A model generated the notes under the pieces. That model searched no databases, had not been told where the DNA came from, and saw only the letters and a program-made list of their open reading frames with translations. This document shows, piece after piece, positions 8,732 to 32,275 of a DNA stretch of 55,653 nt. Position numbers and translations under genes: made by a program. Within the stretch, counting starts at the first letter, position 1. Each line of letters opens with the position of its first letter. Source of the DNA: Anaerolineales bacterium (GTDB lineage Bacteria; Chloroflexota; Anaerolineae; Anaerolineales; Villigracilaceae); the NCBI GenBank assembly GCA_034434035.1, contig DAOTZM010000088.1, positions 1 to 55,653 on the forward strand, written 5' to 3'.

Positions 8732-10741
8732 ATGTCACAGGAATTGTTTCTCAACGGAATCGACGCCGACACCGGCGGCCCCATCGACGGAGACGATGTT
8801 GTCATCACTACCGAGATGATTGCCAAAGTGGCGCGCGGGCAGAAACTCACGCCCGAAGACCTGCGCGATGCCAAGATGCGCAAAGCCCTCGATGACCAAA
8901 AACATGAGCATTTTGGCGTGGCCGAAGGAATCGACGATACCAACCTGGCTGAAACCGGCTGGTCGGTCATCTTCCCGGCGGCCCTGCCCAAAAAATCGGT
9001 CGATGCGCTCAAGGAAGCCCTCGAACCCCTGCTCGACCATCGCCGCGAACAGGCCTCGGCCAACGCCGAAACATTCTACAAGGAAGTCATCGGCCCGGAG
9101 TTGGGCATCAAAAACGGCGAGAGCAAGAACGAGTTCCTAAAACGCTTTGGGCGCGGCCCCGGCCCGGCGGACCCGGCCAAGTTCCCCTACTATGCCCTGA
9201 TTGTCGGCTCGCCGGAAACCATCCCCTACACCTTCCAATACCAGTTGGACGTGCAATACGCCGTGGGGCGCATTTACTTCGACAAACTCGAAGACTATTA
9301 CCAGTATGCCCAGAGCGTGGTTGCCGCCGAAACCAAGAAGCTGGCGCGCGCCAGGAAAGCCGCTTTCTTTGGCGTCGCCAACCCCGACGACCGCGCTACC
9401 CAGATGAGCGCCGAACATCTCATCCAGCCGCTGGCAAAGCAAATGAAAACCCGCAAAGACTGGAAAGTGGATGTCGTCGCCCCCGAAAAAGCCACCAAAG
9501 CCAACCTGGGCAATTACATGGGCGGCAAGGATACCCCCTCCCTGCTCTTTACTGCCTCGCACGGCATGAATTTCAAGATGGGCGATCCGCGCCTGCTGCG
9601 CCACACCGGCGCCATCCTGACCCAGGACTGGCCCGGCCCCAAAGCGCGCGTCCCCATCAAGGAAGACCTGTACTTCTCCGCCGACGACATCGCTTCGAAT
9701 GCCGATGTGTTCGGCATGATTGCCTTCGTCTTTGCCTGTTATGGCGGCGGTATTCCCAAGATGGATAACTTCTACCGGCAAGCCTTTGGCTCGCAAAAAG
9801 AGATTGCCCCGTATGCCTTCATCTCGCAGTTGCCGCTCAGGCTGCTCTCCCACCCCAAGGGCGGCGCGCTGGGCGTCTTTGCGCACGTCGAACGCGCCTG
9901 GGGACAATCGATTATCTGGGACCAATCGGCAGCCGATGTCGTCACCTTTACATCAATGATTGACGCCCTGCTGAATGGCAAACCCGCCGGAGCCGCCACC
10001 GAGTACTTCAACGAACGCTACGCCGAAATCTCCACCATGCTGACCGAGGAACTGGACAACACCACCCCAGACAATCAAGATGACGTTAAAATTGCCGGAT
10101 TGTGGACCTCGAACAACGATGCCCGCAACTATGCCTTCATCGGCGACCCGGCGGTGCGGCTGGCTATCGGCGCAGCGGAAACGCCCAAGCCCGAACGCGA
10201 GAAACTCGGCGCGATTGTCAGCCAGCCCCCGGCGGCAGTCGTCGGCGCGGCGGTCAGTTTCCAGCCGGATGTCGAAGACCGCGCCCCGGCAGCAAAGGCC
10301 GCCACTTCAGGCGGCGCAGCGGTGGATTACAGTGTCCGCGACCTCTTCAGTAAAAAACCAGAACCAGGGGATGGCGCAGCCCCCGCCCCCGCCAGCGGCG
10401 GACTGAACGAATCGCTTAAAAATTTCGTCGAAAAACTGGGCAATTACCTCAGCAAAGCCCTCGACGACGCCAGCAGCCTGGAAGTCAGCACCTACGTAGC
10501 CGATGACCTGGCCGATGTAAAATATGAAAGCGGCAAATACAGCGGCGCCCGCCTGCGCGCCATAACCCGCATCAACCTCGACGGCGACACCCTGGTCTGC
10601 ATCCCGGAAAAAGACGGCGAAGTCGATACTGCCATCTGGAACATTCACCTCGAGATGGTCAAATCGGCCCAGGAAAACCGCGCGGAATTAATGAAAACCA
10701 TCGTCGGCGCGGCGACGAGCATTGTCAACATCGTCAAGTAA
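8732..10741 (+). CDS. caspase-fold (clan CD, gingipain/C25-like) cysteine protease with a C-terminal domain shared with the downstream small protein
   Basis: 669 aa. His in LLFTASHGM and Cys in IAFVFACYGGG, each after a hydrophobic strand and about 50 aa apart. YALIVGSPETIPY resembles the C25 family. Ala/Pro/Gly-rich linker, then an about 110-aa C-terminal domain. AAAGGAG SD 6 nt upstream. Confidence 0.6.
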   Translation: MSQELFLNGIDADTGGPIDGDDVVITTEMIAKVARGQKLTPEDLRDAKMRKALDDQKHEHFGVAEGIDDTNLAETGWSVIFPAALPKKSVDALKEALEPLLDHRREQASANAETFYKEVIGPELGIKNGESKNEFLKRFGRGPGPADPAKFPYYALIVGSPETIPYTFQYQLDVQYAVGRIYFDKLEDYYQYAQSVVAAETKKLARARKAAFFGVANPDDRATQMSAEHLIQPLAKQMKTRKDWKVDVVAPEKATKANLGNYMGGKDTPSLLFTASHGMNFKMGDPRLLRHTGAILTQDWPGPKARVPIKEDLYFSADDIASNADVFGMIAFVFACYGGGIPKMDNFYRQAFGSQKEIAPYAFISQLPLRLLSHPKGGALGVFAHVERAWGQSIIWDQSAADVVTFTSMIDALLNGKPAGAATEYFNERYAEISTMLTEELDNTTPDNQDDVKIAGLWTSNNDARNYAFIGDPAVRLAIGAAETPKPEREKLGAIVSQPPAAVVGAAVSFQPDVEDRAPAAKAATSGGAAVDYSVRDLFSKKPEPGDGAAPAPASGGLNESLKNFVEKLGNYLSKALDDASSLEVSTYVADDLADVKYESGKYSGARLRAITRINLDGDTLVCIPEKDGEVDTAIWNIHLEMVKSAQENRAELMKTIVGAATSIVNIVK

Positions 10742-13849: not shown

Positions 13850-15151
13850 CTATCCGCAGCCACCGCCGGATTTGTCGCGTTTCATCTGTAACTGAATCTT
13901 GGGAGTAAATTCAATTTTTTCGTTCTCGATGGGGTCAGGGTCAGAACACTCGTAGCGGTCGCCCAGGGCAGCGGGGAATTTGAATCTCAGGGTTTCCTCC
14001 AGCGCGGTTGAGACGGGCTGAATTTCGGGGTCGGTATGACCGAAGACGGTAATCCAGTGGTTGATGCCGCCTTCGAGAATGTAGACATTCGGCACGCCCT
14101 CGGCGGTCAGCAGCCGCCAGGATTGGGTGGCGAGTCCCTCGTCGTTGCCCATCAGCACGTAAACGGCGTTCGGCGCGGAGGCGGCGAGCAGTTCCGGGAT
14201 GCGCGATTTCAATTGCTCGGCGGGAATATTCAGCGCGCCGCGCAGGTGGAACAGGTTGTAATCGGATTCGGAGCGCACATCCAACAGGGTCAGGATGAGT
14301 CCCTGGTCGTAACGCGCCTTGAACAGCTCCGCCGGGGTGATTTGAACCAGTCGCTGATTCAGGGCTTCCTCGGCGGAGTATTTGACCTGTGTCTCTGTCA
14401 CTTTTCCATCGGCCTGTAATTCGGGAACGGTGCGAAGGATGATGGCCTTTTCGTATTTCTGCTCGGTGGAGGGCATTCCGATAAAAACAACGGCCAGCGC
14501 CAGGACGATGATTGCGCCCGCGCCGTACAGGCGCAGCTTGGGTTCGCGGCTCATATCTTTTTTACCGATAATACGCTCCAGTTGTTCAGAACCCCAGAAC
14601 ATGAACAGCGCCATCAGGACGACCATTAGAACGACGACGCCGGTCGGCAGGCCGAAGACATCCATCAACGTGACGCGGCCAAAATATCCGGCATTGTTGT
14701 ACCAGTCGGTGAAGAAACGTTCGGTTTCACCAAACAGGAACGCGCCCACGAATCCGCCCAGCATGAACATCATGCCGTCGATTTTGCCGGTCGAGGCCGA
14801 AGCCAGCGAGGTGGTGGGACAGAACCCGCCAACAATAAAGCCAACGCCCATAATCAGCCCGCCCAGGATGCCCGACCAGAGATAGGTCGGATTGACCCAG
14901 ACCTGGCTGTAATCGAGCAAACCGAGGCTGACTGCGCCGAAGGTCAGCACCATGGCAGTGATGACGGCGGTGAACATCACTTTCAGCACGGTCAGTTCGG
15001 TGAAATAGAACTGGGCGGCCAGTTTGCGGCTGTTGCCAAAGCCCGACATTTCGAGGGTGAAGCCAAAAGCGAAGCCAATCAGTCCAAAGACGAGATAGGT
15101 CCAGGGATTGGCGGCGCTGACGTTTTGGAAGGCAAGAAGAGGAAAGTTCAT
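13850..15151 (-). CDS. YeeE/YedE-family sulfur-compound transporter half fused to a C-terminal rhodanese domain
   Basis: I prefer the start MNFPLLAF at 15151 (GAGG SD). Membrane part has GGFCPT. C-terminal rhodanese-like LLDVRSESDYNLFHLRGALNIP...YILEGGINHW. The 516-aa ORF extension overlaps the upstream gene. Confidence 0.75.
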   Translation of the reverse strand: MNFPLLAFQNVSAANPWTYLVFGLIGFAFGFTLEMSGFGNSRKLAAQFYFTELTVLKVMFTAVITAMVLTFGAVSLGLLDYSQVWVNPTYLWSGILGGLIMGVGFIVGGFCPTTSLASASTGKIDGMMFMLGGFVGAFLFGETERFFTDWYNNAGYFGRVTLMDVFGLPTGVVVLMVVLMALFMFWGSEQLERIIGKKDMSREPKLRLYGAGAIIVLALAVVFIGMPSTEQKYEKAIILRTVPELQADGKVTETQVKYSAEEALNQRLVQITPAELFKARYDQGLILTLLDVRSESDYNLFHLRGALNIPAEQLKSRIPELLAASAPNAVYVLMGNDEGLATQSWRLLTAEGVPNVYILEGGINHWITVFGHTDPEIQPVSTALEETLRFKFPAALGDRYECSDPDPIENEKIEFTPKIQLQMKRDKSGGGCG

Positions 15152-15161
15152 AGGAGCCTCG

Positions 15162-15731
15162 CTAATTCCACAATTTCCGCACGAAATAGGCCAGGCCATA
15201 GGCGCCCGCAAAGATGCAGAGCATGACCACCCATGAGCCAGCCGAAAGCACCGCTCCGCCGGTGAGGGCCTGGCCGCTGGTGCAGCCGCGCGCCATGCGC
15301 GCCCCATAGAGGAACAACATGCCGCCCACAAAGGCCAGCAGCCAGCGGGCGCGGTCAGAGATATGCGGGCCTTTGGTGGTTTCGAGTTTGACGCGGCCAA
15401 AAATCATGCCCGAGGCAAAGCCACCCAGCAGCGCGCCGAAAAAGACCGGAACCAGCCAATCATCGAGCGGGTTTTTGTCGCCGCCGGCCATGCGCAACAG
15501 GTAAGGGGTGCGGTCCACATGGTCGGGGACGAACTGGTCTTGCACGAAAACGACCAGGCGCGAGGTAGCCCCCGAGGAGCCAAGTCCGTTACCAGTCAGA
15601 AACAAGGCCAGGAACAGGACCACGCCCAGGATGACCCCGCCCAGATACGGATGCACATAGGGTTGGGCCGGGCGGTTGAAGAGGGCTTTCAGGTCAAAAG
15701 TTTTTTTGGTTGGTTTTGCTGCGAGTGCCAT
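15162..15731 (-). CDS. YeeE/YedE-family sulfur-compound transporter half
   Basis: Start MALAAKPTKK at 15731. ARGCTSGQALTGG motif is typical of YeeE/YedE. The ORF extension upstream only translates heptamer repeats. Confidence 0.75.
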   Translation of the reverse strand: MALAAKPTKKTFDLKALFNRPAQPYVHPYLGGVILGVVLFLALFLTGNGLGSSGATSRLVVFVQDQFVPDHVDRTPYLLRMAGGDKNPLDDWLVPVFFGALLGGFASGMIFGRVKLETTKGPHISDRARWLLAFVGGMLFLYGARMARGCTSGQALTGGAVLSAGSWVVMLCIFAGAYGLAYFVRKLWN

Positions 15732-15805
15732 AAGTTTCTCTCTTTCCGGGTTCGTTATTCCGGGTTCGTTATTCGGGGTTCGATATTCGTTATTCGACCA
15801 ATTTT

Positions 15806-15875
15806 CGAGTATCGAGTATCGAGTATCGAGTATCGAGTATCGAGTATCGAGTATCGAGTATCGAGTATCGAGTTT
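15806..15875. repeat. tandem heptanucleotide array (CGAGTAT x9 plus 1 variant), flanked by 14/7-mer repeats (15745-15796) and GAATTACC-type repeats (15881-15908)
   Basis: Counted directly. Lies between the cytochrome-b fusion gene (stop at 15894) and the yeeE-like start (15731). Confidence 0.95.
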
Positions 15876-15893
15876 CGCGCCACGAATTACCAA

Positions 15894-18620
15894 TTACGAA
15901 TTACCATTCTCGCTCTCCTCCACTTCCTCCCAGCCCGTGACCATGCCGCGCATGGCTTCGAGCGGTGCCGCGCCGGTGGTGGTGAGATAGACGTGTCCGA
16001 CGATAAAAGCGGCCAGCAGCCAGGCCGCCAGGCTGTGGAAAGGCGCCAGGACGGGCAGGCCGCCAAACCAACCGGCAACCTGCGGCCACTGCTGCACGCC
16101 CCACATCAGCGCGCCGGTGAGCATTTGGAGCGGGAGCAAAACGGTCAGCAGGCCGAAGTAGGTTATCTGCTGGAGCGGGTTCAATTTTTTCTCACGACGC
16201 TTCTCGAAGGGATGCGGTTCGCCCTTGAAAATCCCAACAACATAGAACTTGACCTGCACCACCATATCGTTGATGATGCCGACCGGCTTGAGGAAGTTGG
16301 GAATGTACTGGCGGACTTCGCCGGTGGTGACATGCCAGAACAGCGACATCAGGAAGTTCAGCACCAAGATGGCCGCCAGCACATTATGAATCAGCACCAT
16401 GTGGCGGAAGGAGAACGCGCCAAAGATGTCAGGACGGTGGATGGCCAGGCCGGTAAAGAGCAGGAAGACAATCGCAAAGGTCTGAAGCCAGTGCCAGAAG
16501 CGCTCGTATGCCTCGTACATGTAAACGCGCTTGAGGGCGGGCGCATGTTTGGGGTGTTTGAGCGACGAGAGATAGCGGAATGTGCCATGCCCGGCGACGC
16601 CGAACAACGTTCCGACGAAGGCCAGCGCGCCAAACCAATCAATCCAGTGGATTCGGTCGCGGCCAAAGACGTAGACGCCGTCCTTCATCGTAACCGGCTG
16701 GTAGAACAGCGCGCCATCCTCCCCGCTGATAATTTCTCCGGTCACGTTGACATTGCTATCGCTGACAAACTGCGGCAGCACGCCCGCCGGAGCATAAGCG
16801 GCCAGTTGTAAAGGCGCGGTGACGCGCGAATCGCTGGTGTGGCAGGTGGTGCATTCGCGGATGGCATGGCCGCGTCCGGCAACATTGTGATTGATGCTGT
16901 AAGGCTGCACCTGCCCCTCGATGTGCGGATTGTTCAATCCAAGCGCTTCGAGCCGGGCGGCGACAACCGCCTGCTTTTCGAAGGAATCGGTGCGCAATTC
17001 AGCCGAATCGAGCAAGCCGTTTTTATCGCTATCGAAGGCCGCCAGGATTTCGGGCGCGTACTGACCATTGACAAGATACGCGGCCTGTAAATCGAATTCG
17101 CGCACCGGGCGCGGGCCGTTCTCCCCGTCGTAAACCCAATAGAAAGATGTCACCAGGTTGTACGGGGCAAGCAGTTTTTGTCCGTCGATGTTGGTGCGCT
17201 GCATGAGAACGGGCTGGAAGCCGGTTACCAGGCTGTTGACCGTATCGCCGCCAGTCAGACCCCGGCACAAATTGGCAGGTGAACCATCCAGGCTGACCAC
17301 CGTCCAGTCGTAGGATTGGATGGCGGGGGCGTACATCTGCGGGATGTGGCAGGCTTCGCAAGCCACAACGGTCATGTGCCGTTCGGTGTAAGGCAGCCAA
17401 TCATTGTGGGCTGGAACGGCGTCGTGGCACGACTCGCAGCGCCGCATGGAATCTTTCGACTCAGGCGCGACAGTAAACTGGGCGCTCTGCCCGCGCGCGA
17501 AGTTGTGGTCGGGGCGTTGCAGGTATTCGCCGATTTCCAGTTTGCGCGGGTCGTAGGTCAGGTGGTCGGGGGAAGTCGCCGCAATGGTCTGGGCATGGAT
17601 GGGATTGTTGAGCGAGTAGTGACAATCGGTGCATTTCAGGGCGCGCTCGGCGTGGATGTCCCAGGAACGGGTCAGGGTTTGCTTGTCTTTCAGGTTGACG
17701 CCCGAAGCGGAAATTTTTTGCGCGGCAATCACCTGTCCGGTAGTGGCGGTCTTGGGATAGGACATATCGCAGGCCGAGATAACCAGCGGAGAATCGCTGC
17801 TGGCGTGGACTTCACCGTGACAGGCGGCGCAGTTTTCGTTAGCGGGGTCCTGGAGCAGGACAAATTCCGGTTTGAGTTTGCCGTCCTCGCCAAAGGCGGC
17901 GGGATTGTAGGTAAACGTCTCGCCTGACTTTTCGACCCAGCCCATGCCAACCAGGGTGGCGGTGTTGGCCTGCCCAAAGCGCCCAGCCTTGATTTCGGCG
18001 GCGCGGGCTTCCGTGTTAGGGCTGGGCAGATGGCACAGGAAGCAGTTCATCTCCATCACGCCGGAGGCCTGCCAATCCCACGCTTCCGCCTGGCCGGTTT
18101 CGGGATTGAGGAGGGAAGATTCAGGGTTGGAAGGGTCGGGGGGAATCTGTAAAAGGGAAAGTCCACTGCGGGAGGTGGTCGCCGGGCCGCCGCCGGGAAT
18201 CCGCTCCCCATAGTTCATCAACCACCCGGCGGTAGTCAGGTCGAGACGCTCATCGCCGGGCTGGGAGAGATAGCGGTAGGTGATGGGGTCCCACTTGCCG
18301 AACATGCCGTTGCTGGCGTTCAGGCCGTCCCCGGGCTGGTAAGCGCCCAGGCCGAGGTCGGCGTGGAAGCTGTGGGATTCGATGTAGGCGGCGTCGTGGC
18401 ACTGCCCGCAGGTCTGCATGGTGCTGACGGGCTGCCCGCTTTCCAAGACGTTTGCGCCGTCAGAGTCGAGCAGGGCAAAGGCCGGGTGGATGGGCGAAAC
18501 CTGTTGGGCAGGCGCAGCGGGCTGGTGGGCCAAGGCGTACGTGACGCCCAGGGCGGCGAGCGCAAGCAGGCTTAATCCGGCTGTCAGGAGCGATTTTCGA
18601 TGCAGGAAGATGGGTTTCAT
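15894..18620 (-). CDS. seven-heme c-type cytochrome fused to a membrane b-type cytochrome (FdnI/PhsC/HyaC-like) module
   Basis: Start MKPIFLHRKSLLTAGLSLLALAALG (signal/anchor) at 18620. Seven CxxCH motifs: CGQCH, CFLCH, CAACH, CTDCH, CESCH, CEACH, CTTCH. C-terminal 4-5 TM region has FWHWLQTFAIVFLLFTGLAIH. Confidence 0.75.
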   Translation of the reverse strand: MKPIFLHRKSLLTAGLSLLALAALGVTYALAHQPAAPAQQVSPIHPAFALLDSDGANVLESGQPVSTMQTCGQCHDAAYIESHSFHADLGLGAYQPGDGLNASNGMFGKWDPITYRYLSQPGDERLDLTTAGWLMNYGERIPGGGPATTSRSGLSLLQIPPDPSNPESSLLNPETGQAEAWDWQASGVMEMNCFLCHLPSPNTEARAAEIKAGRFGQANTATLVGMGWVEKSGETFTYNPAAFGEDGKLKPEFVLLQDPANENCAACHGEVHASSDSPLVISACDMSYPKTATTGQVIAAQKISASGVNLKDKQTLTRSWDIHAERALKCTDCHYSLNNPIHAQTIAATSPDHLTYDPRKLEIGEYLQRPDHNFARGQSAQFTVAPESKDSMRRCESCHDAVPAHNDWLPYTERHMTVVACEACHIPQMYAPAIQSYDWTVVSLDGSPANLCRGLTGGDTVNSLVTGFQPVLMQRTNIDGQKLLAPYNLVTSFYWVYDGENGPRPVREFDLQAAYLVNGQYAPEILAAFDSDKNGLLDSAELRTDSFEKQAVVAARLEALGLNNPHIEGQVQPYSINHNVAGRGHAIRECTTCHTSDSRVTAPLQLAAYAPAGVLPQFVSDSNVNVTGEIISGEDGALFYQPVTMKDGVYVFGRDRIHWIDWFGALAFVGTLFGVAGHGTFRYLSSLKHPKHAPALKRVYMYEAYERFWHWLQTFAIVFLLFTGLAIHRPDIFGAFSFRHMVLIHNVLAAILVLNFLMSLFWHVTTGEVRQYIPNFLKPVGIINDMVVQVKFYVVGIFKGEPHPFEKRREKKLNPLQQITYFGLLTVLLPLQMLTGALMWGVQQWPQVAGWFGGLPVLAPFHSLAAWLLAAFIVGHVYLTTTGAAPLEAMRGMVTGWEEVEESENGNS

Positions 18621-18667
18621 GGGTTCATCCGTTGCTTTATCTGGCATTGGACAGGATAAATCCTGTC

Positions 18668-20143
18668 CTACTTGCGCCCGCCCCATTTGAGGGGGTCGCC
18701 GGGGTAGCCGAGGGCTTGCCAGTCCATGCGCCCGTTTTCGCTGTGGCAATCGCTGCATTGCAGGGCGTTTTCTTTGGGCTGGACCATGTGCGTAATCGGC
18801 CAATACATGTAGGTTTCGGTGAAACCGTAATTGCCGCTGTATGCCAACCCGGTGCGTTCCTGGGCCAGGCGGAAGGCGCTATCCCAATCGAAGGTCGTCC
18901 AGTAACCATCCGGCCCGGAGGTGATGGGAGCCAGCAGGTAGTTATAGCCGGTGTCATAGGGCTGGTTGCCAACATGCAATTTGAAGGGGAAAATCTTGGC
19001 GGTCGGGTCTTTAATATCCCCGGCAACTTTGTTGATGTATGTGACCTGGGTCGGGTCGATTTTGTCGCCCAGCAGGTAGCGGTACTCCAGGTTGCCGTTG
19101 AACCACAGGTAGGTGGGTTGGACGTTTTTCTGGTAGACGAAGTTGCCCTTGATTTTCAGGTAGGTGAAGTGGTCGTCGCCAATGTCCTGGCCGGAGGTGG
19201 ACCAATCCCACGAAACTTTGGTGGGGTCCTCGACCGCAAAGGCCGGGATATGACAGGTCTGGCAGGCCACCGAGTCCGTATGCAGGTTGATGCGCTCGTC
19301 GGTGTGTGGATTCTCGTTGTGACACTGGGTGCAGGAAACCTGCTCCGCCGGGTCGATGGTGAGATTATCAACCACGAGGCGGCCCTTGACCTGGTGATTG
19401 GTGGTCACATGGCAGTCGGTGCAGATGAAGTTGTTGCGCCCCATGTGGACATCCTGGCTTTCGGATGGGTAGATGAGGCTCTGGTCGAGGTCGCCGTGCT
19501 TCACGCCGTTGCCTCCGCCGCCGTTAAAATGGCAGTTCCCGCACGACTGGCGGGTGGGCGCGGCGACCGAACCGGCGGCTGCCACCAGGTTGACGCCTTC
19601 ACGAGGATTTCCATACGAACCTTTGGCGTATCCCGATTGGGCGTGGCAGATTAAGCAGTCGACGTTTTCGGGGTTTTCAAGATTGGCGCCATAGTTGCCA
19701 TCTTGAACATTTTCGTCTTCCTGCCAGTTGTAGCCGATATGACAACTGGTGCAACTTTTCTGGTTGCCCTTCGCGCTGATGCAGAAGTTGTTCATCTGGT
19801 TGAATTTGCCGATGGTGGCCGTTTCGCCATCACGCCAGGGAATCTCGAATTCCGGGCTTTGCCAGGTCCAGTGGCTGGTCATCATCACGTCGCTGGCGGC
19901 GTTCGGGTGGCACTCCAGGCAGGCGCGGGTGATGTCGGGGCCGGTGAGGGCGGCGGGGTCAACACCCTTGAATTTGGCGGCAATGATGTCGGCGTGCGGG
20001 ACATGCACGGGATGTTTGGGAACCGCCGCCCAGGGGTCATCGAGGGCGCGGGCGCTCTTGGGCCAGAGCGCAATCAGCGGGACGAGCAGGACGGCCAGGA
20101 TGCCAATCAGTCCCAGAAGCCAGTAGGGTTTTACTTTCGTCAT
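18668..20143 (-). CDS. octaheme c-type cytochrome, tetrathionate-reductase (OTR) family-like
   Basis: 491 aa with an N-terminal TM/signal. Eight CxxCH motifs: CLECH, CTSCH, CLICH, CGNCH, CTDCH, CTQCH, CQTCH, CSDCH. N-terminal CLECH...MMTSHWTW resembles OTR. AAGGAG SD. Confidence 0.7.
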   Translation of the reverse strand: MTKVKPYWLLGLIGILAVLLVPLIALWPKSARALDDPWAAVPKHPVHVPHADIIAAKFKGVDPAALTGPDITRACLECHPNAASDVMMTSHWTWQSPEFEIPWRDGETATIGKFNQMNNFCISAKGNQKSCTSCHIGYNWQEDENVQDGNYGANLENPENVDCLICHAQSGYAKGSYGNPREGVNLVAAAGSVAAPTRQSCGNCHFNGGGGNGVKHGDLDQSLIYPSESQDVHMGRNNFICTDCHVTTNHQVKGRLVVDNLTIDPAEQVSCTQCHNENPHTDERINLHTDSVACQTCHIPAFAVEDPTKVSWDWSTSGQDIGDDHFTYLKIKGNFVYQKNVQPTYLWFNGNLEYRYLLGDKIDPTQVTYINKVAGDIKDPTAKIFPFKLHVGNQPYDTGYNYLLAPITSGPDGYWTTFDWDSAFRLAQERTGLAYSGNYGFTETYMYWPITHMVQPKENALQCSDCHSENGRMDWQALGYPGDPLKWGGRK

Positions 20144-20213
20144 TGCATTCTCCTTTGCCCTTCACCCCGGCCCTCTCCCGATGAGAGAGGGAGCAGAGGT
20201 AAAGATGCGTACA

Positions 20214-20552
20214 TTACGCGTCAATCTCTTCCATCAAGTTTGCGCGGTAGGCGATGCGGTCGCGCAGGACGCTGCGCAGCAGGTCGAGGGCCTGGATGAG
20301 GCGTTTGTCGTTCAGTTCGTATTGGATGACCACGCCCTGCCGGTTGGGGCGCACCAGGCCCCGGTCGCGCAGGATTTTCAGGTGGCGCGAGGCGGTGGGC
20401 TGGGTGATGTTCAATTCCTGGGTCAGTTCGGTCACGTTGCGCGGCTGCTCATCGAGCGCGTAGAGCAACAAAATACGGGTCGGGTCGGCGAGGGCGAAGC
20501 ACAAATCGGCTTCGAGTTGGGAAACTTCCTGGGCTAAGGTTTGTGAAATCAT
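20214..20552 (-). CDS. ArsR/SmtB-family transcriptional regulator
   Basis: 112 aa. LADPTRILLLYAL...NVTELTQELNITQPTASRHLKILRDRGLV is a winged helix-turn-helix. Confidence 0.85.
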   Translation of the reverse strand: MISQTLAQEVSQLEADLCFALADPTRILLLYALDEQPRNVTELTQELNITQPTASRHLKILRDRGLVRPNRQGVVIQYELNDKRLIQALDLLRSVLRDRIAYRANLMEEIDA

Positions 20553-20676
20553 GGTAAAGCCTGCCTTGTATGCAAATAAGCGAATATATACATATCAACT
20601 ATATCACCGCCGGGCAAACATGACATAGCGATAGTTGTCACAAAAATCGCGGAGCATTGTCATAGAAGGTGGAATC

Positions 20677-20706
20677 AAAAAGGCTGCCCTTTCGGGCAGC
20701 CTTTTT
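20677..20706. terminator. intrinsic terminator (AAAAAGGCTGCCC-TTTC-GGGCAGCCTTTTT)
   Basis: 13-bp stem flanked by A- and T-runs, 17 nt downstream of the rhodanese gene stop on the minus strand. Confidence 0.8.
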
Positions 20707-20722
20707 GATTCTTGAAAATCGT

Positions 20723-22462
20723 TTACTTCACAACCGGCAATTCCGCGGCAATCCAGGAATTCATACCGCCGTTCAGGTTGCGGACGTTGGTGTAGCCCAG
20801 GGCTTGCAGGTACATCTGGGCAACCGCGCCGCGATGACCGGAAGCGCACAACACGACGATGGGAGCGGCTTTGTCAGCGGGCAGTTGGGCCAGGTTGGCG
20901 GGCAGGTCGTTGACCGGAACCAGCACCGCGCCTGCGATGTGACCTTTTTCGTCCCATTCGGTCTGGCGGCGGACATCGAGCAGGAACGGCACCGTCCCGC
21001 CGGTGATTTCAGCGTTCAGGTCGGGGCCTTTGACCGAGCCAAAGCCGGCGGTGGGCAGGTTGGTCAGGTAGGCATCCAGGTAGGCCAGGCGGATGGCGTC
21101 TACAGCGGGGGCGGTCCCGGCAGTTGGGGCAACGGGAGCGCCTTTTTCGACGGGCAGTTCGGCCTTAACCCAGCCGTTCATGCCGCCGCCCAGGTTGACG
21201 ACATCGGCGTAACCCAGCAACCGCAGGGAAGCCATCGCATACGCGCCGCGGTGGCCGGAGGCGCAAACCACGACAATTTTCGCGTCCTGAGCGGGAAGTT
21301 TGTCCAGATTCTTGAGCAGGTCGCGGATGGGCAGGTTGACCGCGCCGGCGATAAAGCCATTGGCTTCGAGTTCAGACGGTTCGCGCACATCCACAATGAA
21401 AGGCGGATTCTCGGCCAGCATTTCATTCAGTTTTGCGCCGGAGACCGAGTAGAAGCCCTGGTCGGCGGGCAGGTTGGTCAGGAATTCGGCGAAAGTGGCA
21501 GGCCAATCGACCCAACCGACGACCGGCAGTTTGGCCGCTTTCCAGGCGTTCAGGCCGCCGTTCAGGTTGGTGACATCGGTGTAGCCCATCATGCGCAGGG
21601 CCATCAGGGTCATGCCGCCGCGGTGGCCGGAGGCGCAGTAAACGAGGACGGGGGCGTTCTTATCGGCGGGGAATTTATCCAGGCTGGTCAGGAAATCGGG
21701 GAAGGGGATGTGAGTCGCGCCTTCGATATAGCCGTCTTTGTCCCACTCAGCCTGGGAGCGAACATCCACGATAAAAGGCGACTTCTCGATGATGAATTCG
21801 GTGACTTTGTCAGATTTGACGGTGTAAAAGCCCTTATCGGCGGGCAGGCCCGAGAGGAAACCATCCAGGGCATCGAACAGGGCCTTATCTTCGACAATCG
21901 GGCTGCTGATGGCAGCCGCTTCCGCCGGGACGCCCTTTTCAAGCGGCAGGCCAGCCTTTGTCCAGGCGCCAGTTCCACCGCCCAGGTTGACGACGTTGGT
22001 ATAGCCCAACATGCGCAGGGCCATCATCGCCATGCTGCCGCGGTGGCCGGAGGCGCAGTAGATGACAATCTGGTCATCCAGGCCGGGCAGTTTATCCAGG
22101 TTTTGCAGGATACCGCGCACCGGGAGGTTGATTGCGCCTGCGATAAAGCCGTTGGCTTCCAGTTCGGCGGGTTCGCGCACATCGACCAGGAAGACGGGCT
22201 TTTCGGCCAGCTGTTCATTGAGTTTGGCCGCGCTGATGGAGCCGTAGCTCTTATCAGCCGGAACGCTGGCCCAGAACTCGGCGAAAAGGGCCATCAGGTC
22301 CAGTTCCGGCTCAGCGACAACCACCGGTTCTTCGACCACCACAGCCTCAGTGGGGGCCGGCGCCTGGGTGGGAGCGGGAGCCGGGGTAGGCGTGGCGCAG
22401 GCGCCCAGCACGAGGCTGAATAACAGCGCCATGACAACGATAAAGTGAACTTTCTTGGTCAT
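20723..22462 (-). CDS. lipoprotein with four tandem rhodanese (sulfurtransferase) domains
   Basis: Start MTKKVHF at 22462 (AAGGAGAAG SD). Lipobox LVLGAC. Four active-site loops C-A-S-G-H-R-G. Confidence 0.85.
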   Translation of the reverse strand: MTKKVHFIVVMALLFSLVLGACATPTPAPAPTQAPAPTEAVVVEEPVVVAEPELDLMALFAEFWASVPADKSYGSISAAKLNEQLAEKPVFLVDVREPAELEANGFIAGAINLPVRGILQNLDKLPGLDDQIVIYCASGHRGSMAMMALRMLGYTNVVNLGGGTGAWTKAGLPLEKGVPAEAAAISSPIVEDKALFDALDGFLSGLPADKGFYTVKSDKVTEFIIEKSPFIVDVRSQAEWDKDGYIEGATHIPFPDFLTSLDKFPADKNAPVLVYCASGHRGGMTLMALRMMGYTDVTNLNGGLNAWKAAKLPVVGWVDWPATFAEFLTNLPADQGFYSVSGAKLNEMLAENPPFIVDVREPSELEANGFIAGAVNLPIRDLLKNLDKLPAQDAKIVVVCASGHRGAYAMASLRLLGYADVVNLGGGMNGWVKAELPVEKGAPVAPTAGTAPAVDAIRLAYLDAYLTNLPTAGFGSVKGPDLNAEITGGTVPFLLDVRRQTEWDEKGHIAGAVLVPVNDLPANLAQLPADKAAPIVVLCASGHRGAVAQMYLQALGYTNVRNLNGGMNSWIAAELPVVK

Positions 22463-22510
22463 TTTCTTCTCCTTGAAAAAGGCGCGCATACCCTTGCGGG
22501 CACACGACGA

Positions 22511-23650
22511 TTAGGGCGCGCCAATCGCTGGCGGCACTTCAGGGACAATCACAGGCTGGTTGGCCTGGAGTTCCTCAGGGGAGACCTTGTCAGCGGTCAG
22601 GAAAATATCCGGGTTGCCGTGACAGGCGTTGCAGGATGCGTTCTGCGGGGTCTTGCGCTGGATGTTGTGCGGGGTGGCAAAGGCCCAGGTCGGCAGGGCG
22701 TCGAAGTTGGGCAGCAAGTTCTCGCCATAATATTCGTACGAGGTCGGCGAAATCGGGACATGCCGCACGACAACATACTCATAAGGACGATGATAGTTTT
22801 GGAGTGGATTCAACCCGATGAAGAAACTCATGTAACTGCGCTCGGTTTTGAAAAACGGATTGCCGGTTTTCTCGCTGATGGCAACATGGCAGCCATCGCA
22901 ACTCATGTAAGAAACCGAATGGCAGACCTGGCAGGCCAGTTTATCGCCGTGCAGGACGTGCTGGACAACCGGGTCACCCTGCTTGCCGACCGTTTCGTGG
23001 CAGGATTCACACGACGGACTCTGCGCGCCGGAATAACGGTTCGTCACCTGGTAGGCCGCCTGGCTGGTGTCATGACACTGGGTGCAGGCCGCTTCCGAGT
23101 TGTGCATTTCGGCCCCGCTGTGGCAGGAGATACAGTTCATGCGCCCCTGGCGGAAGTGGACATCGCCGGGGATTTCTTCATTCTTGCCGAGATATTCGTT
23201 TCCCACCCGGCTGCCGTGGCAGGCCGTGCAGTTGCGGGTCATGGATGGAGTCTTATTGATGACATGCCCGGAGATGAAACCGCCGCCAACCGAGCCTGGC
23301 TGGCTGATGTGGCAATCGCCGCAGGAGGTGTGGCAGGATGAACAATGGTTGCCAAACATCGTCTCAAGGTCTTTGTGATTTTCAGGCGCACCGCGGGCAT
23401 TCAGGGTATCCCAATAGCCGCTCAGCGAAACGTGCAGGCTCTTCTCGAAGTGTTCAGACTGGTCACCATGACATGCCGCGCAGGTTTCACCCTTGCCGCT
23501 TGGGTCGGCAACCAGGCCAGTGTGAGCAGTTTCCATATCCGGCGACTGCTGGCCTCCGTGACAATAGGTGCAGGCCATCTGACCGTGCGCGGTGGCGAGG
23601 AAGGCCTCGCGCGTGACGAACACTTTCTCCCATGGCTCCAACGGAGCCAC
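22511..23650 (-). CDS. eleven-heme c-type cytochrome lacking its own signal peptide; in frame with the upstream ORF across a UGA
   Basis: 11 CxxCH motifs counted. GTG start is only nominal. The reading frame is continuous with 23660-23923 except for the TGA at 23660-23662. Confidence 0.7.
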   Translation of the reverse strand: MAPLEPWEKVFVTREAFLATAHGQMACTYCHGGQQSPDMETAHTGLVADPSGKGETCAACHGDQSEHFEKSLHVSLSGYWDTLNARGAPENHKDLETMFGNHCSSCHTSCGDCHISQPGSVGGGFISGHVINKTPSMTRNCTACHGSRVGNEYLGKNEEIPGDVHFRQGRMNCISCHSGAEMHNSEAACTQCHDTSQAAYQVTNRYSGAQSPSCESCHETVGKQGDPVVQHVLHGDKLACQVCHSVSYMSCDGCHVAISEKTGNPFFKTERSYMSFFIGLNPLQNYHRPYEYVVVRHVPISPTSYEYYGENLLPNFDALPTWAFATPHNIQRKTPQNASCNACHGNPDIFLTADKVSPEELQANQPVIVPEVPPAIGAP

Positions 23651-23659
23651 ATCGCCCCC

Positions 23660-23923
23660 TCAGCCAACCCCTTCAGATTCAGAGCCGTGCCCGGCTTCTT
23701 CTTCCTTTGCCAGGGCAGCCAGCTTATCCTTATCGGTATGGCACTCCAGGCAGTTATCTACGACCGGAACCAGCGTGGGGAGCGGGGTGGAGGTGGCAGC
23801 AACTGCCTCACCTGTCGGCGGGATTTCGGTTGCTCCTGAGGTCGCTTGCGAAGCGCAGGCAGACAGGGTCAGGGTTGCCAGGGTGAGCGCGATGAGGTGT
23901 TTGAGTTTAATCATGGATGTCAT
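23660..23923 (-). CDS. lipoprotein signal peptide plus single-heme (CLECH) segment; probable N-terminal part of the downstream multiheme cytochrome
   Basis: 87 aa. Lipobox LTLSAC and one CxxCH. Ends in the Gly-rich ...SESEGVG, then TGA, then GGDVAPLEPW in the same frame. Confidence 0.6.
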   Translation of the reverse strand: MTSMIKLKHLIALTLATLTLSACASQATSGATEIPPTGEAVAATSTPLPTLVPVVDNCLECHTDKDKLAALAKEEEAGHGSESEGVG

Positions 23924-24145
23924 CCTTTATTTTTGCGAACTTCGTCACAGTAAAATTTTACATCGATCGCCTAACCTGAATAGTGATAGATGTAACAATC
24001 GAATATTCACCTCGCTTATGGAAAACAATAAGTTTTGGTTTGCGTTTGGGCTATAATAATGTCCTGAAGATTGATGAAAAACGGTCAAAAGCGCCCTAAA
24101 AACCTTGGGGCGGTATTTGACTCCTATCCTTCGAAAAGGAGAGTT

Positions 24146-25096
24146 ATGCTCAACCTGGATTCGCTCCGTGTTTTCCTGACAGTGGCGGAACAAAGCAGTT
24201 TCAGCGAAGCAGGCCGCCGGCTTCACCTGACCCAGCCAGCCGTCAGCCAGAGTATTCAGGGCTTGGAAAAGCATCTGGGGGTACAGTTATTCACCCGCCA
24301 GGGCCGCTCAGTGCATTTGACTGAAGCGGGACAAGTGCTGGTCTCAATGGCGCGTGAATTGCTGACAGCGGCGCAGCGCGTCGAACAGACCATGCTTTCC
24401 CTGCACGGGGAGGTTGTCGGTGAGATGTCAGTCGGCTGCTCGACAGCCTCAGGCAAGTACCTGCTGCCGGGGCTGATTGCCCGCTTCCGCCATGAATATC
24501 CACAGGTACGCATCAACGTGCTCGTCATCAGCCGCGATTCGGTCATCCACAAACTGTTATCAGGCGAGGCCGCGCTCGGTGTTTCGAGCAAGATGATCGA
24601 ACACTACGACCTGGAATACCAGGATTTCTTCAAAGACGACGTTATCCTGGTTGCGCCTGCCGGGCACCGCTGGGCGCAATATCGCAAAATCTACCCGGAC
24701 GACCTGCTCGATGAACCCATCATCCTGCGGGAAGATGCCGCCGGAACCCGGGAAGTACTGCGGGACGGCCTGCTCAAATGCGATATTTCTCCCGATATGC
24801 TGAATGTGGCAATGGTGCTGGGCAACGCCGAGGCGATTGGCATGGCGGTCGAAGAGGGTCTGGGCGTCGCCTTCATCTCCCGCCTGGCCGCCGCGCGCGG
24901 GATGGCGCTGGGGCGGCTGGTGGAAGTGGAGGTCGCGGGTATGCAACTGACCCGCAACCTGTACATGGTTCGCAACCGCCGCCAACCGCTGACCCGCATG
25001 CAGGTGGAGTTTTGGGAATTTGTCAAAAAAGCGCAACTACCGGAAGGACGCGACGCCGTGCGGCTGGAAATGTCCGAGTCGGTCAAGGCCAGATAG
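24146..25096 (+). CDS. LysR-family transcriptional regulator
   Basis: Start MLNLDSLRVFLTVAE (AAAAGGAG SD). HTH SFSEAGRRLHLTQPAVSQSIQGLE. Divergent from the cytochrome cluster. Confidence 0.9.
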   Translation: MLNLDSLRVFLTVAEQSSFSEAGRRLHLTQPAVSQSIQGLEKHLGVQLFTRQGRSVHLTEAGQVLVSMARELLTAAQRVEQTMLSLHGEVVGEMSVGCSTASGKYLLPGLIARFRHEYPQVRINVLVISRDSVIHKLLSGEAALGVSSKMIEHYDLEYQDFFKDDVILVAPAGHRWAQYRKIYPDDLLDEPIILREDAAGTREVLRDGLLKCDISPDMLNVAMVLGNAEAIGMAVEEGLGVAFISRLAAARGMALGRLVEVEVAGMQLTRNLYMVRNRRQPLTRMQVEFWEFVKKAQLPEGRDAVRLEMSESVKAR

Positions 25097-25166: not shown

Positions 25167-26462
25167 TTACTTGACTGCGGTCAACCCCTTGGCAAACCCC
25201 TCCGCGCTGGCCTTGATGAAGGACTCGACACCGGTTTTAAGCAAACCGCCCAGGGCCGTCAGGGCTTTTTTGAGTTGGGCTTTTTCGCCTTCTTTGACCA
25301 GGCCGTCCCATTGTTGGGCGAGCAGCCAGTTGCCCAGGTCTTGGTCATCCTGCGGACGGGTGACGCGCAGCAGTTCAGCGGCCAGCCACCAGAGCACGAC
25401 CTGGGCCTGCAGGCGATAGCCGGCGCGGGATTCGGGGCTTGATTCTTGGACGAGGAACCCGCGTTTGCGCAGGTCATCCACTTCGTTACGGTAATCGGGC
25501 AGGGAGGCCAGCAGGTCATCCAGGTCGAATTCGCGGCCCGTGACCAGGCCGGGCATAGAGGACAGGGCGATGATGGCAACCGCTTTGCGGCTTTCAGGCA
25601 GCCAGGTCTGCCAGGTTTCTTTCAGGATTGGGCGGGCGGTATCGTACAGGTCGCGGGCGGCGCATTCCCAGCGCGCCAGGGATTCGGGTTCGCCGTCGTC
25701 ATAGGCGTCGCGCAGGGCGTTGGCGGCGGTTTGGAGCAGGAAGGGCTGGCCCCCGGCGGCGTGGTACAGGAATTCGGCGTCGGCTGCGCTCAAACCCGGC
25801 TGGAGCGTGGCAACCAGTTGCAGGGCGTCCTTTTTCTCGAGCGCGCCAAGCACCACCTGGGTCATGAAGTTGAAGTAGGGCGAGCCGAGGTGGCTGTAGG
25901 CGCTGGTTTTGTCGTTGAGCTGTTCCAGGTTCTGGCGGCTGGCAATCACCAAGGATAGCGAAGTATAGCGGCTGGCCAGCGAGCGCAGGCTGCCATAGAA
26001 CTCGGCCTGGTGCAGGACGGGGTGATTGAGCAGGTTGTCGAACTCATCAATCAGCAAAACCAGCCGCCAGCCAGCGGATTGCATTTGGGCCAGCAGGCGT
26101 TCGAGGCCAAAGGCGCCGAAGCCTTCGCGCTTGCTGGTGTCGTAAGCGGAAAAGATAGCCGGATGGCGGGTTTGCTTGAGTTTTTCAACCAGCGGCTGCA
26201 GGGCGATTTTCCAGAATTGCTGCTGGTCGAAAGATGCCCCCAAAGGCTGGATGTCGATGTACTGGAAGAGCAGGTTGGCGGCCAGTTCGCCATAGCGGGC
26301 TTCGCGCAGGGCCGGGTCTTGCAGGTGATGGAGCAGGCTGGTTTTGCCCATGCGCGGCTCGCCGCAAATGGCCAGCGATTGCCCGCCGTTCGACAGACGG
26401 CTGACAATGCGCCGGATTTCGCGGGCGCGGCCAATGAAGGGAGTGTGAGAGGATGAGTTCAT
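25167..26462 (-). CDS. AAA/STAND-like ATPase, paralogous to the N-terminal module of the DGR target
   Basis: 431 aa. FIGRAREI...LAICGEPRMGKTSLL (Walker A) and LVLLIDEFDNL (Walker B). Same motif order as in 29339-32026. Confidence 0.7.
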   Translation of the reverse strand: MNSSSHTPFIGRAREIRRIVSRLSNGGQSLAICGEPRMGKTSLLHHLQDPALREARYGELAANLLFQYIDIQPLGASFDQQQFWKIALQPLVEKLKQTRHPAIFSAYDTSKREGFGAFGLERLLAQMQSAGWRLVLLIDEFDNLLNHPVLHQAEFYGSLRSLASRYTSLSLVIASRQNLEQLNDKTSAYSHLGSPYFNFMTQVVLGALEKKDALQLVATLQPGLSAADAEFLYHAAGGQPFLLQTAANALRDAYDDGEPESLARWECAARDLYDTARPILKETWQTWLPESRKAVAIIALSSMPGLVTGREFDLDDLLASLPDYRNEVDDLRKRGFLVQESSPESRAGYRLQAQVVLWWLAAELLRVTRPQDDQDLGNWLLAQQWDGLVKEGEKAQLKKALTALGGLLKTGVESFIKASAEGFAKGLTAVK

Positions 26463-26484: not shown

Positions 26485-26677
26485 ATGTACCACAGGCTTC
26501 AGCCTGTAAATCACTGCCTGAAGGCGGTGCGGATGTACCACAGGCTTCAGCCTGTAAATCACTGCCTGAAGGCAGCGCGGATGTACCACAGGCTTCAGCC
26601 TGTAAATCACCGCCTGAAGGCAGCGCGGATGTACCACAGGCTTCAGCCTGTAAATCGCCGCCTGAAGGCGGCGGTAC
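26485..26677 (+). repeat. REP array: four abutting 48-nt units, each with two hairpins
   Basis: Unit is ATGTACCACAGGCTTCAGCCTGTAAATCACTGCCTGAAGGCGGTGCGG. Hairpins ACAGGC-TTCA-GCCTGT and CACTGCC-TGAA-GGCGGTG. Period 48 nt starting at 26485, 26533, 26581, 26629. Confidence 0.9.
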
Positions 26678-27766: not shown

Positions 27767-28111
27767 TTACGGCAGGGAGGGCAGGCTTTTCAGCCAGCCG
27801 CCCAACAGCCTGCCGATTTCCGTCAGAGCATTTACGGCATATTCATATTGTTTGGCGTCCATCAATTTGCGCGCATGACTCAGGCGCAGGTAAAAGCGGG
27901 CTTTGTCCAGTTCCAGGTCAGCCTGGGCCAGGGCCGCGCGGGTTTGCGCGGGACGGGTGGCCGCCAACAGGCATTCGTGAAATCCAAACAGGCTGTCTTC
28001 CAGCCGCTTTGCCAGCCGAAAGCGCTCGCTTTTGGGATAACCCTAGGCGTGATTCAACGTCCAGAGCAGGAAATCATAGGTCTTGCTGAAAATTGGTGAT
28101 TGCTGGGACAC
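27767..28111 (-). pseudogene. avd: DGR accessory variability determinant (Avd, four-helix-bundle family) with an in-frame TAG
   Basis: GTG at 28111 with GAAGGAGG SD. Reads SPIFSKTYDFLLWTLNHA-TAG-GYPKSERFRLAKRLEDSL...EIGRLLGGWLKSL. The TAG is at 28043-28045. The gene overlaps the RT 3' end by 38 nt. Confidence 0.75.
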
Positions 28112-29198: not shown

Positions 29199-29250
29199 TG
29201 CAAAACCTCCTTTCCCTGGTTTGCAGGCTAAAGCCTGCGATACGATTTGC

Positions 29251-29280
29251 AAAAAAAATAACGCGACCCGCTGCGCGGGG
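29251..29280 (-). terminator. candidate terminator between the target gene and the RT (GC hairpin CCCGC-GCA-GCGGG, then T8)
   Basis: Minus strand reads CCCCGCGCAGCGGGTCGCGTTATTTTTTTT. The stem is short and 8 nt from the T-run. Confidence 0.35.
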
Positions 29281-29338
29281 AAGACAGGAGCGCAGAACGC
29301 CCTTCGGGCGCAGAAAATCAGAAACCAGAATACCAGAA

Positions 29339-32026: not shown

Positions 32027-32062
32027 ACCTGGCAATCTCCATGTGTACCGCAGGGATACATG

Positions 32063-32158
32063 CGTACCGCAGGCTTCAGCCTGTGGATTCACCGCCTGAA
32101 GGCAGCGCGGATGTACCGCAGGCTTCAGCCTGTAAAGCACCGCCTGAAGACAGGGGTA
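32063..32158 (+). repeat. two REP units of the 26485 family (plus a degenerate partial copy upstream)
   Basis: CGTACCGCAGGCTTCAGCCTGTGGATTCACCGCCTGAAGGCAGCGCGG and ATGTACCGCAGGCTTCAGCCTGTAAAGCACCGCCTGAAGACAGGGGTAC. Confidence 0.85.
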
Positions 32159-32275
32159 CTTTTCATGCAAAAGTATACAACAAAATCGAAAAGTGAAGCC
32201 CTCCCCGCCGGCGCGCGTTTAACATGGCAGGCGCGATACGATGGAAAATCGGGTATACTTTCCCCGCTTAAGCCT

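Follow-up and report, generated by a model that had tools for sequence, protein, structure and literature searches.

A probable dodecaheme cytochrome selenoprotein and two separately conserved operons at a sulfur-linked locus of Anaerolineae

The DNA analyzed here, called the window, is a stretch of 55,653 nt that makes up contig DAOTZM010000088.1 of an Anaerolineales bacterium (GCA_034434035.1), and the locus in question occupies positions 13850-23923, where multiheme c-type cytochromes, rhodanese domains and a split YeeE/YedE transporter are encoded on the minus strand beside a divergent LysR-family regulator. A sequence-only reading had taken these genes for a single respiratory module. Every gene that it listed was found on the minus strand where it had placed it, with the LysR gene divergent, and the terminator that it had noticed is real. 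Comparison with related loci points to a different arrangement, in which the locus very probably consists of two units and begins with a multiheme cytochrome gene that reads through an in-frame UGA as selenocysteine (Sec) with the help of a selenocysteine insertion sequence (SECIS). The features of the locus are listed below.

24071..25096, plus strand: divergent LysR-family regulator (Pfam HTH_1 and LysR_substrate)
23923..22511, minus strand: predicted lipoprotein dodecaheme c-type cytochrome selenoprotein of 470 codons including one UGA (open reading frames in one frame)
23662..23660, minus strand: in-frame UGA, predicted to be read as Sec (TGA conserved across relatives)
23649..23633, minus strand: bacterial SECIS-type hairpin, U-GGCUCC-GUU-GGAGCC-A (from sequence and fold)
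22489..20723, minus strand: 588-aa lipoprotein with four rhodanese domains and four CASGHRG loops (PF00581, E=1e-83)
~20706..20675, minus strand: intrinsic terminator closing unit 1 (read directly from the sequence)
20626..20598, minus strand: promoter-like site ahead of the ArsR gene, ATGTCA-17-TATAGT with TG
20552..20214, minus strand: ArsR/SmtB-family regulator, first gene of unit 2 (PF01022 and NF033788)
20143..18668, minus strand: c-type cytochrome with eight hemes, a member of the OTR family (TIGR04315, 1sp3)
18620..15894, minus strand: 908-aa protein with a seven-heme c-type domain and a C-terminal cytochrome b, a putative quinol dehydrogenase (PF01292), here called c7/cytb
15731..15162, minus strand: predicted YeeE/YedE half-transporter 1, YeeE1 (PF04143 profile positions 167-309)
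15151..13850, minus strand: predicted YeeE/YedE half-transporter 2 with a rhodanese-homology domain, YeeE2 (PF04143 positions 7-195, and PF00581)

The cytochrome at the head of unit 1 appears in the window as two open reading frames (ORFs), one of 87 aa (23923..23660) with a lipobox signal, LSAC, and one CxxCH motif, and one of 379 aa (23650..22511) with eleven CxxCH motifs. Both lie in the same frame, and the only thing that separates them is one TGA (...SESEGVG-TGA-GGDVAPLEPWEKVF...). This codon, the most informative feature of the locus, had been overlooked in the sequence-only reading, whose count of 1 + 11 hemes stands while its separate ORFs do not. Read through, the protein would contain, in order, the signal with LSAC, heme 1 (CLECH), the segment G-V-G-U-G-G and then eleven CxxCH motifs. 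The downstream eleven-heme ORF lacks a signal peptide, and because c-type hemes need extracytoplasmic attachment, an ORF with eleven hemes and no export signal argues for a single gene.

This codon was followed in the best 80 of 363 species genomes that encode a cytochrome relative (in a scan of one genome per species); the DNA fetched over all 162 loci came to 2.4 Mb, with ~15 kb taken per genome. The codon five positions ahead of the peptide APLEPW is TGA in all 80 genomes and in the window, never TAA or TAG, and to either side of it the reading frame is kept in 80/80 (ES.G.G-U-GG.VAPLEPWEK). A CxxCH motif precedes the Sec codon in 77 of 79 relatives, with 10-12 CxxCH motifs after it. The hairpin GGCUCC-GUU-GGAGCC begins 11 nt past the UGA with its apical loop G at 17 nt, a geometry that fits the published bacterial SECIS model, in which the small apical loop opens with a G at a distance of 16-37 nt from the UGA (PMC13188914). 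Across the 81 sequences of the conservation set (80 species loci plus the window), codons +4 to +8 (GTG GCT CCG TTG GAG) show zero third-position variation, against ~0.8-2.0 bits at nearby degenerate codons; the hairpin stem is itself invariant, and hence there is no covariation to count. An 81-nt fold around the UGA shows the hairpin with an unremarkable z-score for the whole segment (-0.76), so the case for a SECIS rests on comparative data. A search of the whole window against Rfam at gathering thresholds gave no match to a curated SECIS or any other RNA family.

Homologues with a sense codon at this site provide a further line of evidence (loci are named from L001 onward, and family proteins carry P numbers). 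The close homologue P0103 has TGT (Cys) at the Sec codon with the hairpin intact, and another homologue has TTA (Leu). Eight of 26 divergent full-length representatives have GCGG, CCGG or SCGG at the Sec site (P0150, P0160, P0163, P0171, P0172, P0183, P0197 and P0217), and in these Cys-type members the hairpin-encoding APLEPW motif is degenerate. Such decay in the Cys forms is what would be expected if the invariance in the Sec forms is imposed by the RNA. A global reassignment of TGA, for example to Gly in view of the glycine context, was ruled out, as TGA is the ordinary stop of 5 of the 26 other genes in the window. In total, this comparative evidence indicates that the 1 + 11 heme cytochrome is very probably one selenoprotein gene with a bacterial SECIS.

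The family is large and carries misleading names. A protein search returned 2495 relatives, and 117 of the 120 best matches start exactly at [MV]APLEPW, which shows that gene callers clip the relatives at one shared place; a GTG codon stands directly before APLEPW. HMMER, run in full over 1.8 billion representatives, gave 179 family clusters at E<=1e-30. Among the best 80 genomes, all of them from Anaerolineae, are those of two bacteria in culture, Bellilinea caldifistulae GOMI-1 and Thermanaerothrix solaris; with 363 species genomes encoding the cytochrome, and with OTR already on record in metagenome-assembled genomes of Chloroflexota, the expectation that such genes would be unusual for this lineage did not hold. 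In the databases the protein is called a “hypothetical protein” or, wrongly, a “thiosulfate/3-mercaptopyruvate sulfurtransferase” (JGI), and it is split or truncated wherever we looked. Two members, P0156 and P0179, are natural fusions of the cytochrome to two C-terminal rhodanese domains; the JGI name, given to many members free of rhodanese, probably stems from annotation transfer off such fusions.

Sequence and structure searches placed the cytochrome only in general terms. It has weak similarity to the Pfam MtrC/MtrF domain and to the DmsE family, no NCBIfam model covers it, and sequence and profile searches of the PDB gave generic multiheme matches, the best being 28pb (“cytochrome c”, E=8e-7) over two heme motifs. 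An AlphaFold2 model of the Cys-type homologue P0103 was poor, with a predicted local distance difference test score of 56 and values below 50 in the Sec region, and is uninformative on the location of Sec; a Foldseek search of this model against the PDB gave no match. In the 80 full-length translations, only the lipobox position and the two Cys positions of each CxxCH are Cys in at least 95% of sequences. In a 2026 review of prokaryotic selenoproteins, the cytochrome-related ones listed are ExtKL, a protein of the GSU2204 type and some members of the OTR family, and no others. A literature search found no paper on a cytochrome selenoprotein in Anaerolineae or Chloroflexota (the supplementary tables of the paper on MccSep, a Geobacter selenoprotein discussed below, lay outside this search). 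The Sec-cytochrome is thus apparently an undescribed family of multiheme selenoproteins.

The cytochrome gene is seldom found without its companions in unit 1. Synteny in the 80 genome loci was determined by tblastn with the window proteins as queries, and alongside the cytochrome (80 of 80) the rhodanese gene lies directly downstream in 76 loci and a LysR homologue is present in 67, mostly divergent upstream. The active-site cysteines of the rhodanese lipoprotein are present in its four CASGHRG loops, which are of the catalytic C-x5-R type, and 62 of 71 homologues have four loops of the CxxxxR[GASTN] type, mostly C-x-S-G-x-R. Both non-Sec variants examined (Cys and Leu) are without a rhodanese neighbor. 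As the cytochrome and the rhodanese are both predicted lipoproteins, they would be anchored to the cytoplasmic membrane from outside. NF041203, “rhodanese-related (seleno)protein”, gives a score with the rhodanese repeats. The LysR protein, whose true start is probably the ATG at 24146 (MLNLDSL...), matches NF040786, “selenium metabolism-associated LysR”, at 259.8 bits over a cutoff of 250, and the same family is the best match for the LysR proteins of L027, L047 and L076, at 203-227 bits and under the cutoff.

For unit 2, a scan anchored on the c7/cytb fusion provided 80 metagenome loci at 55-93% identity. The order ArsR, OTR, c7/cytb, YeeE1, YeeE2 is kept, including in contigs at 55-65% identity, with counts of 45, 68, 80, 72 and 58 of 80 respectively, YeeE1 being the next gene after c7/cytb wherever it is counted. 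Where a count falls short, in most cases the contig stops inside the gene or ahead of it, so ArsR precedes the OTR gene in at least 45 of the 80. The unit 2 genes lie beside the Sec-cytochrome in its closest relatives (L001-L003) and, partial or rearranged, in a few others, ~8 of the 80 genome loci, and conversely the pair of Sec-cytochrome and rhodanese occurs in only 6-7 of the 80 unit 2 loci, in three different arrangements. In the window itself, a terminator and a promoter-like site lie between the units. The terminator, AAAAAGGCTGCCC-GAAA-GGGCAGCCTTTTT, is of the perfect intrinsic type and was overlooked by a simple terminator scan; it was also read directly as AAAAAGGCTGCCC-GAAA-GGGCAGCCTTTTTGATT. 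The synteny check over the two sets of loci does not support the one co-conserved cluster that had been proposed, and we are confident that the locus comprises two independently conserved operons that are sometimes neighbors.

Several unit 1 loci carry genes that could link the Sec-cytochrome to the quinone pool. In 17 of 80, genes 2.5-5 kb upstream encode a membrane protein that resembles QrcD/NrfD and a Tat-exported Fe-S protein that resembles DsrO/NrfC, and in 14 of 80 a multiheme cytochrome anchored in the membrane at its C-terminus is encoded upstream. Loci with the Qrc/Nrf-like module include L037, L067 and L079, and the module is absent from the window. The QrcD/NrfD-like protein, the DsrO/NrfC-like protein and the anchored cytochrome form a candidate quinol-oxidizing partner of unit 1. 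A DsrMK-like membrane Fe-S protein is encoded downstream in ~10 of 80, and in ~8 of 80 the unit 2 genes with OTR and c7/cytb would offer a further quinol input. This variety of quinone modules suggests that unit 1 is a terminal module joined to the quinone pool in different ways.

The proteins of unit 2 belong to better-known families. The octaheme protein is a clear family member of Shewanella oneidensis OTR, with TIGR04315 at 536.2 bits (cutoff 375), PF11783 at E=4e-60, 1sp3 at E=1e-127 and eight CxxCH motifs; in the alignment to 1sp3 its GK and NNFC residues, matching Lys56 and Cys64, are conserved, Lys56 being what we take to be the reported heme ligand. It differs from the Shewanella protein in its context, a conserved operon with ArsR, c7/cytb and the split YeeE-rhodanese, which was not found in the literature search. 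The c7/cytb protein joins seven CxxCH motifs to a PF01292 membrane domain at residues 702-896 (83.6 bits against a cutoff of 30.1). Its b domain is closest to PhsC (NF011582, 132.2 bits, under the cutoff of 204), and hydrogenase cytochrome b models are below their cutoffs as well. CbcL is the precedent for a menaquinol oxidase built from cytochrome b and multiheme c domains; compared by description, the architectures are alike, with seven hemes in c7/cytb against nine in CbcL. The ArsR protein matches NF033788 at 79.5 bits (cutoff 55) and has a single Cys; the BigR/SqrR-type model NF040642 gives 47.1 bits against a cutoff of 155, which does not place it among the two-Cys persulfide sensors, and the TsoR model is below its cutoff.

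YeeE1 and YeeE2 each match one half of PF04143, so that the two complement each other, and both matches pass the Pfam cutoff; the NCBIfam models TsuA and YedE score far below theirs. YeeE of the YeeE/YeeD (TsuA/TsuB) system imports thiosulfate and relays it via cysteines to a partner Cys (PMC11073785), and the YeeE-like SoxT imports sulfur for oxidation and for signaling to ArsR-type repressors (PMC11582611). The window pair appears to share with these systems the PF04143 fold, conserved Cys-containing motifs, a partner domain with a conserved Cys and a nearby ArsR-type regulator; it differs in that YeeE is split into two genes and in that the partner is a rhodanese-homology domain with a GGCG tail and without a catalytic Cys, not a TusA-like YeeD. 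The second half had been credited with a rhodanese domain, and the domain is there, but its loop reads GNDEG where a catalytic Cys would stand, and homologues conserve msNDE at this place. YeeE2 continues past its YeeE half with an extra transmembrane helix, the rhodanese-homology domain and the end ...KRDKSGGGCG, of which the C-terminal GGCG (13850-13880) is invariant in 49/49 YeeE2 homologues, drawn from the metagenome set (L081-L160). Because an extra helix follows the YeeE half, whose C-terminus is cytoplasmic in YeeE-YeeD structures (PMC11073785), the rhodanese-like domain probably faces outward, where it might hand sulfur species to the channel.

The glycine-flanked Cys of the YeeE2 tail resembles the GxG-U/C-GG site of the cytochrome, which is GGGCGG in P0197 and P0217. 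Identities as TsoR, TsoB or a selenium-linked YedE were rejected for the unit 2 genes, as all NCBIfam scores are far below cutoff. The spacer between c7/cytb and YeeE1 contains a 7-nt microsatellite (TCGAGTA x10.4, 15805-15877) and a 14-nt repeat (x3.2, 15744-15788). The 7-mer has two copies in the closest relative, L001, and none in nine other related loci, and its expansion is therefore lineage-specific.

Of the known systems, unit 1 can be set beside the extHIJKL cluster of Geobacter. ExtKL, or MccSep (GSU2937-2936 of Geobacter sulfurreducens), is a selenoprotein with five hemes that reduces polysulfide, cannot be spared in S0 respiration and also reduces selenite, and its catalytic nucleophile is a Sec in a DGUP loop beside a His/Cys-ligated heme (Mihara et al., Sci Adv 2026; PMC13510729). 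In the extHIJKL cluster, a gene for a lipoprotein of the rhodanese type, ExtH, stands with those for the Sec-pentaheme ExtKL, and a divergent LysR lies upstream (PMC6148476). Unit 1 has in common with it the divergent LysR, the rhodanese lipoprotein and the UGA-split multiheme cytochrome with a SECIS, and its cytochrome is like MccSep in the alternation of Sec and Cys among homologues, in its extracytoplasmic location and in being annotated wrongly as two ORFs. In contrast, the window family has 12 hemes (one plus 10-12 CxxCH) where MccSep has 5, and its Sec is N-terminal, between hemes 1 and 2 in GxGUGG, where that of MccSep lies in a C-terminal Ig-like loop (DGUP). The window side also has four rhodanese domains, no conserved heme-ligating Cys and neither the ExtI porin nor ExtJ, and its carriers here are Anaerolineae, whereas MccSep is reported mainly in Desulfobacterota and Nitrospirota (PMC13510729). 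By analogy, unit 1 may be a functional counterpart of MccSep/ExtH that is unrelated to it in sequence. A second parallel comes from Wolinella succinogenes, in which Sud, a periplasmic rhodanese-type polysulfide-sulfur transferase, feeds the polysulfide reductase Psr. Both cases have a rhodanese-type carrier that passes, or is proposed to pass, sulfane sulfur to a quinol-linked terminal reductase, but Psr belongs to the molybdoenzymes and has an anchor of the NrfD type, whereas the proposed reductase of the window is a heme/Sec protein, paired with a four-domain, lipid-anchored carrier.

Our best reading of unit 1 is an extracytoplasmic, membrane-anchored reductase for polysulfide or S0, and possibly for selenite. 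It is the in-frame UGA that ties unit 1 to the MccSep/ExtH type of polysulfide reductase, and not to tetrathionate or thiosulfate chemistry. The four rhodanese cysteines would trap the sulfane sulfur of polysulfide or S0 as persulfides, the Sec selenolate, carried on a flexible glycine-flanked segment, would attack the S-S bond of the persulfide or polysulfide, and the heme chain would reduce the Se-S adduct and free sulfide, with electrons drawn from the quinol pool via whichever quinol-oxidizing module a genome provides. We put forward sulfane-sulfur reduction tentatively, at slightly less than an even chance. More speculatively, and with correspondingly less confidence, the dodecaheme protein could be a second, independently evolved heme-plus-selenium chalcogen reductase, in which Sec serves as a swinging nucleophile or an axial heme ligand, persulfide is taken up directly from the rhodanese and no Cys-ligated heme is needed. 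For unit 2, the most economical reading is a quinol-to-tetrathionate pathway, in which OTR would carry out the quinol-dependent reduction of tetrathionate, the most likely substrate, or of a related sulfur or nitrogen oxyanion, the YeeE pair would carry a product or signal of the thiosulfate type through the membrane, and ArsR would be its sensor. The extracytoplasmic, quinone-linked sulfur pathway that had been suggested for the whole locus is thus retained as far as gene content goes (OTR, a CbcL/PhsC-type fusion, YeeE halves, intact rhodaneses) and given up as a single module. Taken whole, a sulfane-sulfur reductase in unit 1 with a separate quinol-to-OTR pathway in unit 2 seems to us an evenly balanced proposition.

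Several observations weigh against this explanation. The cytochrome gives no match to NF040886 (ExtKL) even at E<=10, and the MccSep chains 9wt8 and 9wt9, which are in the PDB set searched, were unmatched by phmmer (E<=10) or by profile (E<=1). With no conserved Cys outside CxxCH, the published MccSep mechanism of a His/Cys-ligated heme plus Sec cannot apply. About half of the divergent full-length relatives carry neither Sec nor Cys at the site, so the fold does not depend on this residue, and not all family members need it. ARAGORN found no tRNA-Sec in the window and the 162 loci, none of the Sec-insertion genes selA, selB, selC and selD turned up in the window or the fetched DNA, and a tblastn search for SelD with an E. 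coli query gave no match in the 2.4 Mb, which at ~15 kb per genome is uninformative. The best NCBIfam match of the LysR protein is selenium-linked and suits a selenium role equally well. A literature search found no report of sulfur respiration in cultured Anaerolineae that bear the locus, and nothing relevant on S0 reduction with multiheme cytochromes in Anaerolineae. For unit 2, the physiological substrate of OTR is unsettled even in Shewanella.

Among the alternatives, the one that survives best is that unit 1 handles selenium: at the cell surface the Sec-cytochrome would reduce selenite or Se(0), perselenide would be carried by the rhodanese for selenoprotein assimilation or detoxification, and the LysR would respond to selenium. 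The window LysR is above the NF040786 cutoff and this family comes out on top for LysR proteins of distant loci, although the family name reflects gene neighborhood and not a tested ligand; the rhodanese repeats score on NF041203, but it takes four weak domain matches added together to reach this score, and the Sec site of that family is Ser here. From Geobacter, it is known that MccSep reduces selenite at appreciable rates (PMC13510729) and that deletion of extI, the porin gene of the cluster that includes ExtH, impairs selenite and tellurite reduction, yet the ambiguity there was settled for polysulfide by a 5-fold lower K0.5 and an S0-respiration phenotype (PMC13510729). A 12-heme protein with a four-domain carrier in hundreds of species would also be heavy machinery for a trace element, and we consider a selenium role unlikely.

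The pathway might also run in the oxidative direction, in which rhodanese-bound sulfane sulfur, thiosulfate or sulfide would be oxidized at the Sec-cytochrome or OTR, with electrons passed to the quinone pool or another acceptor, as in TsdA/SoxAX. OTR and TsdA-type cytochromes are reversible in vitro, but described Anaerolineae such as Bellilinea caldifistulae and Thermanaerothrix are strict anaerobic fermenters. The MccSep authors point to a relation with the reverse TsdA/SoxAX reaction (PMC13510729), and SoxT offers a case of sulfur import for oxidation with ArsR-type signaling (PMC11582611); however, there are no Sox, sHdr or terminal oxidase genes in the conserved neighborhood, and the associated Qrc/Nrf/DsrMK quinone modules usually send electrons outward, which leaves oxidation improbable.

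We regard it as just as improbable that unit 1 serves extracellular electron transfer in general, as a conduit at the surface through which electrons reach Fe(III), humics or partner cells, with Sec and rhodanese as accessories. A lipoprotein multiheme cytochrome with weak MtrC/MtrF-domain and DmsE-family similarity would suit such a role, and in Geobacter extHIJKL alone sustains partial reduction of Fe(III) and Mn(IV) oxides (PMC6148476), but this leaves unexplained an expensive and strictly conserved Sec, a near-obligate rhodanese, the cytochrome-rhodanese fusions and the loss of rhodanese in the non-Sec variants. Least credible by far is a genuine stop at the TGA, which would leave either a small lipoprotein with one heme beside an 11-heme protein of its own or a pseudogene, since the split and truncated database models, their starts at [MV]APLEPW and the GTG codon ahead of it are outweighed by the missing export signal, the TGA identity, frame and flanking peptide kept in 80/80 species, hairpin codons frozen at synonymous sites, the existence of full-length sense-codon (Cys/Leu) homologues, and the fact that a pseudogene would not remain intact over 55-96% identity.

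The surroundings of the locus in the window were also noted. Conflict-system-like genes stand on both sides: a CHAT-SIR2 gene (2806-4905), an nSTAND1-WD40 gene (4927-8667) and a C25-like peptidase gene (8732-10741) on one, and a STAND/AAA NTPase gene (25167-26462), a reverse-transcriptase gene (28074-29357) and a gene for an AAA-TPR-FGE-sulfatase protein (29339-32170) on the other. Between the STAND-NTPase gene and the next ORFs, upstream of the reverse-transcriptase gene, a 48-nt unit is repeated 3.9 times at 96% identity (26485-26673). Farther along, at ~35000-38000, is an island of low GC content (0.40-0.42 against ~0.59 elsewhere) with a DNA methylase gene (35266-36957) and a 385-aa ORF, which looks like a horizontally acquired restriction-modification cassette.

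At the level of annotation, the GxGUGG signature with APLEPW and the SECIS provides a simple fix for hundreds of database entries, and with Bellilinea caldifistulae GOMI-1 and Thermanaerothrix solaris as carriers in culture, the hypothesis can be put to a direct test. If sulfane-sulfur reduction by unit 1 proves true, heme-plus-Sec cleavage of S-S bonds, first shown in Geobacter in 2026, would have arisen more than once and would be workable without a Cys-ligated heme. Anaerolineae, which are usually regarded as simple fermenters, rank among the most abundant bacteria of anoxic sediments, aquifers and anaerobic digesters. On this reading, abundant “fermentative” Anaerolineae would be cryptic reducers of S0 and polysulfide, or of selenium, and their disposal of electrons onto sulfur, polysulfide or selenium would alter the assignment of sulfur and selenium cycling in metagenomes.

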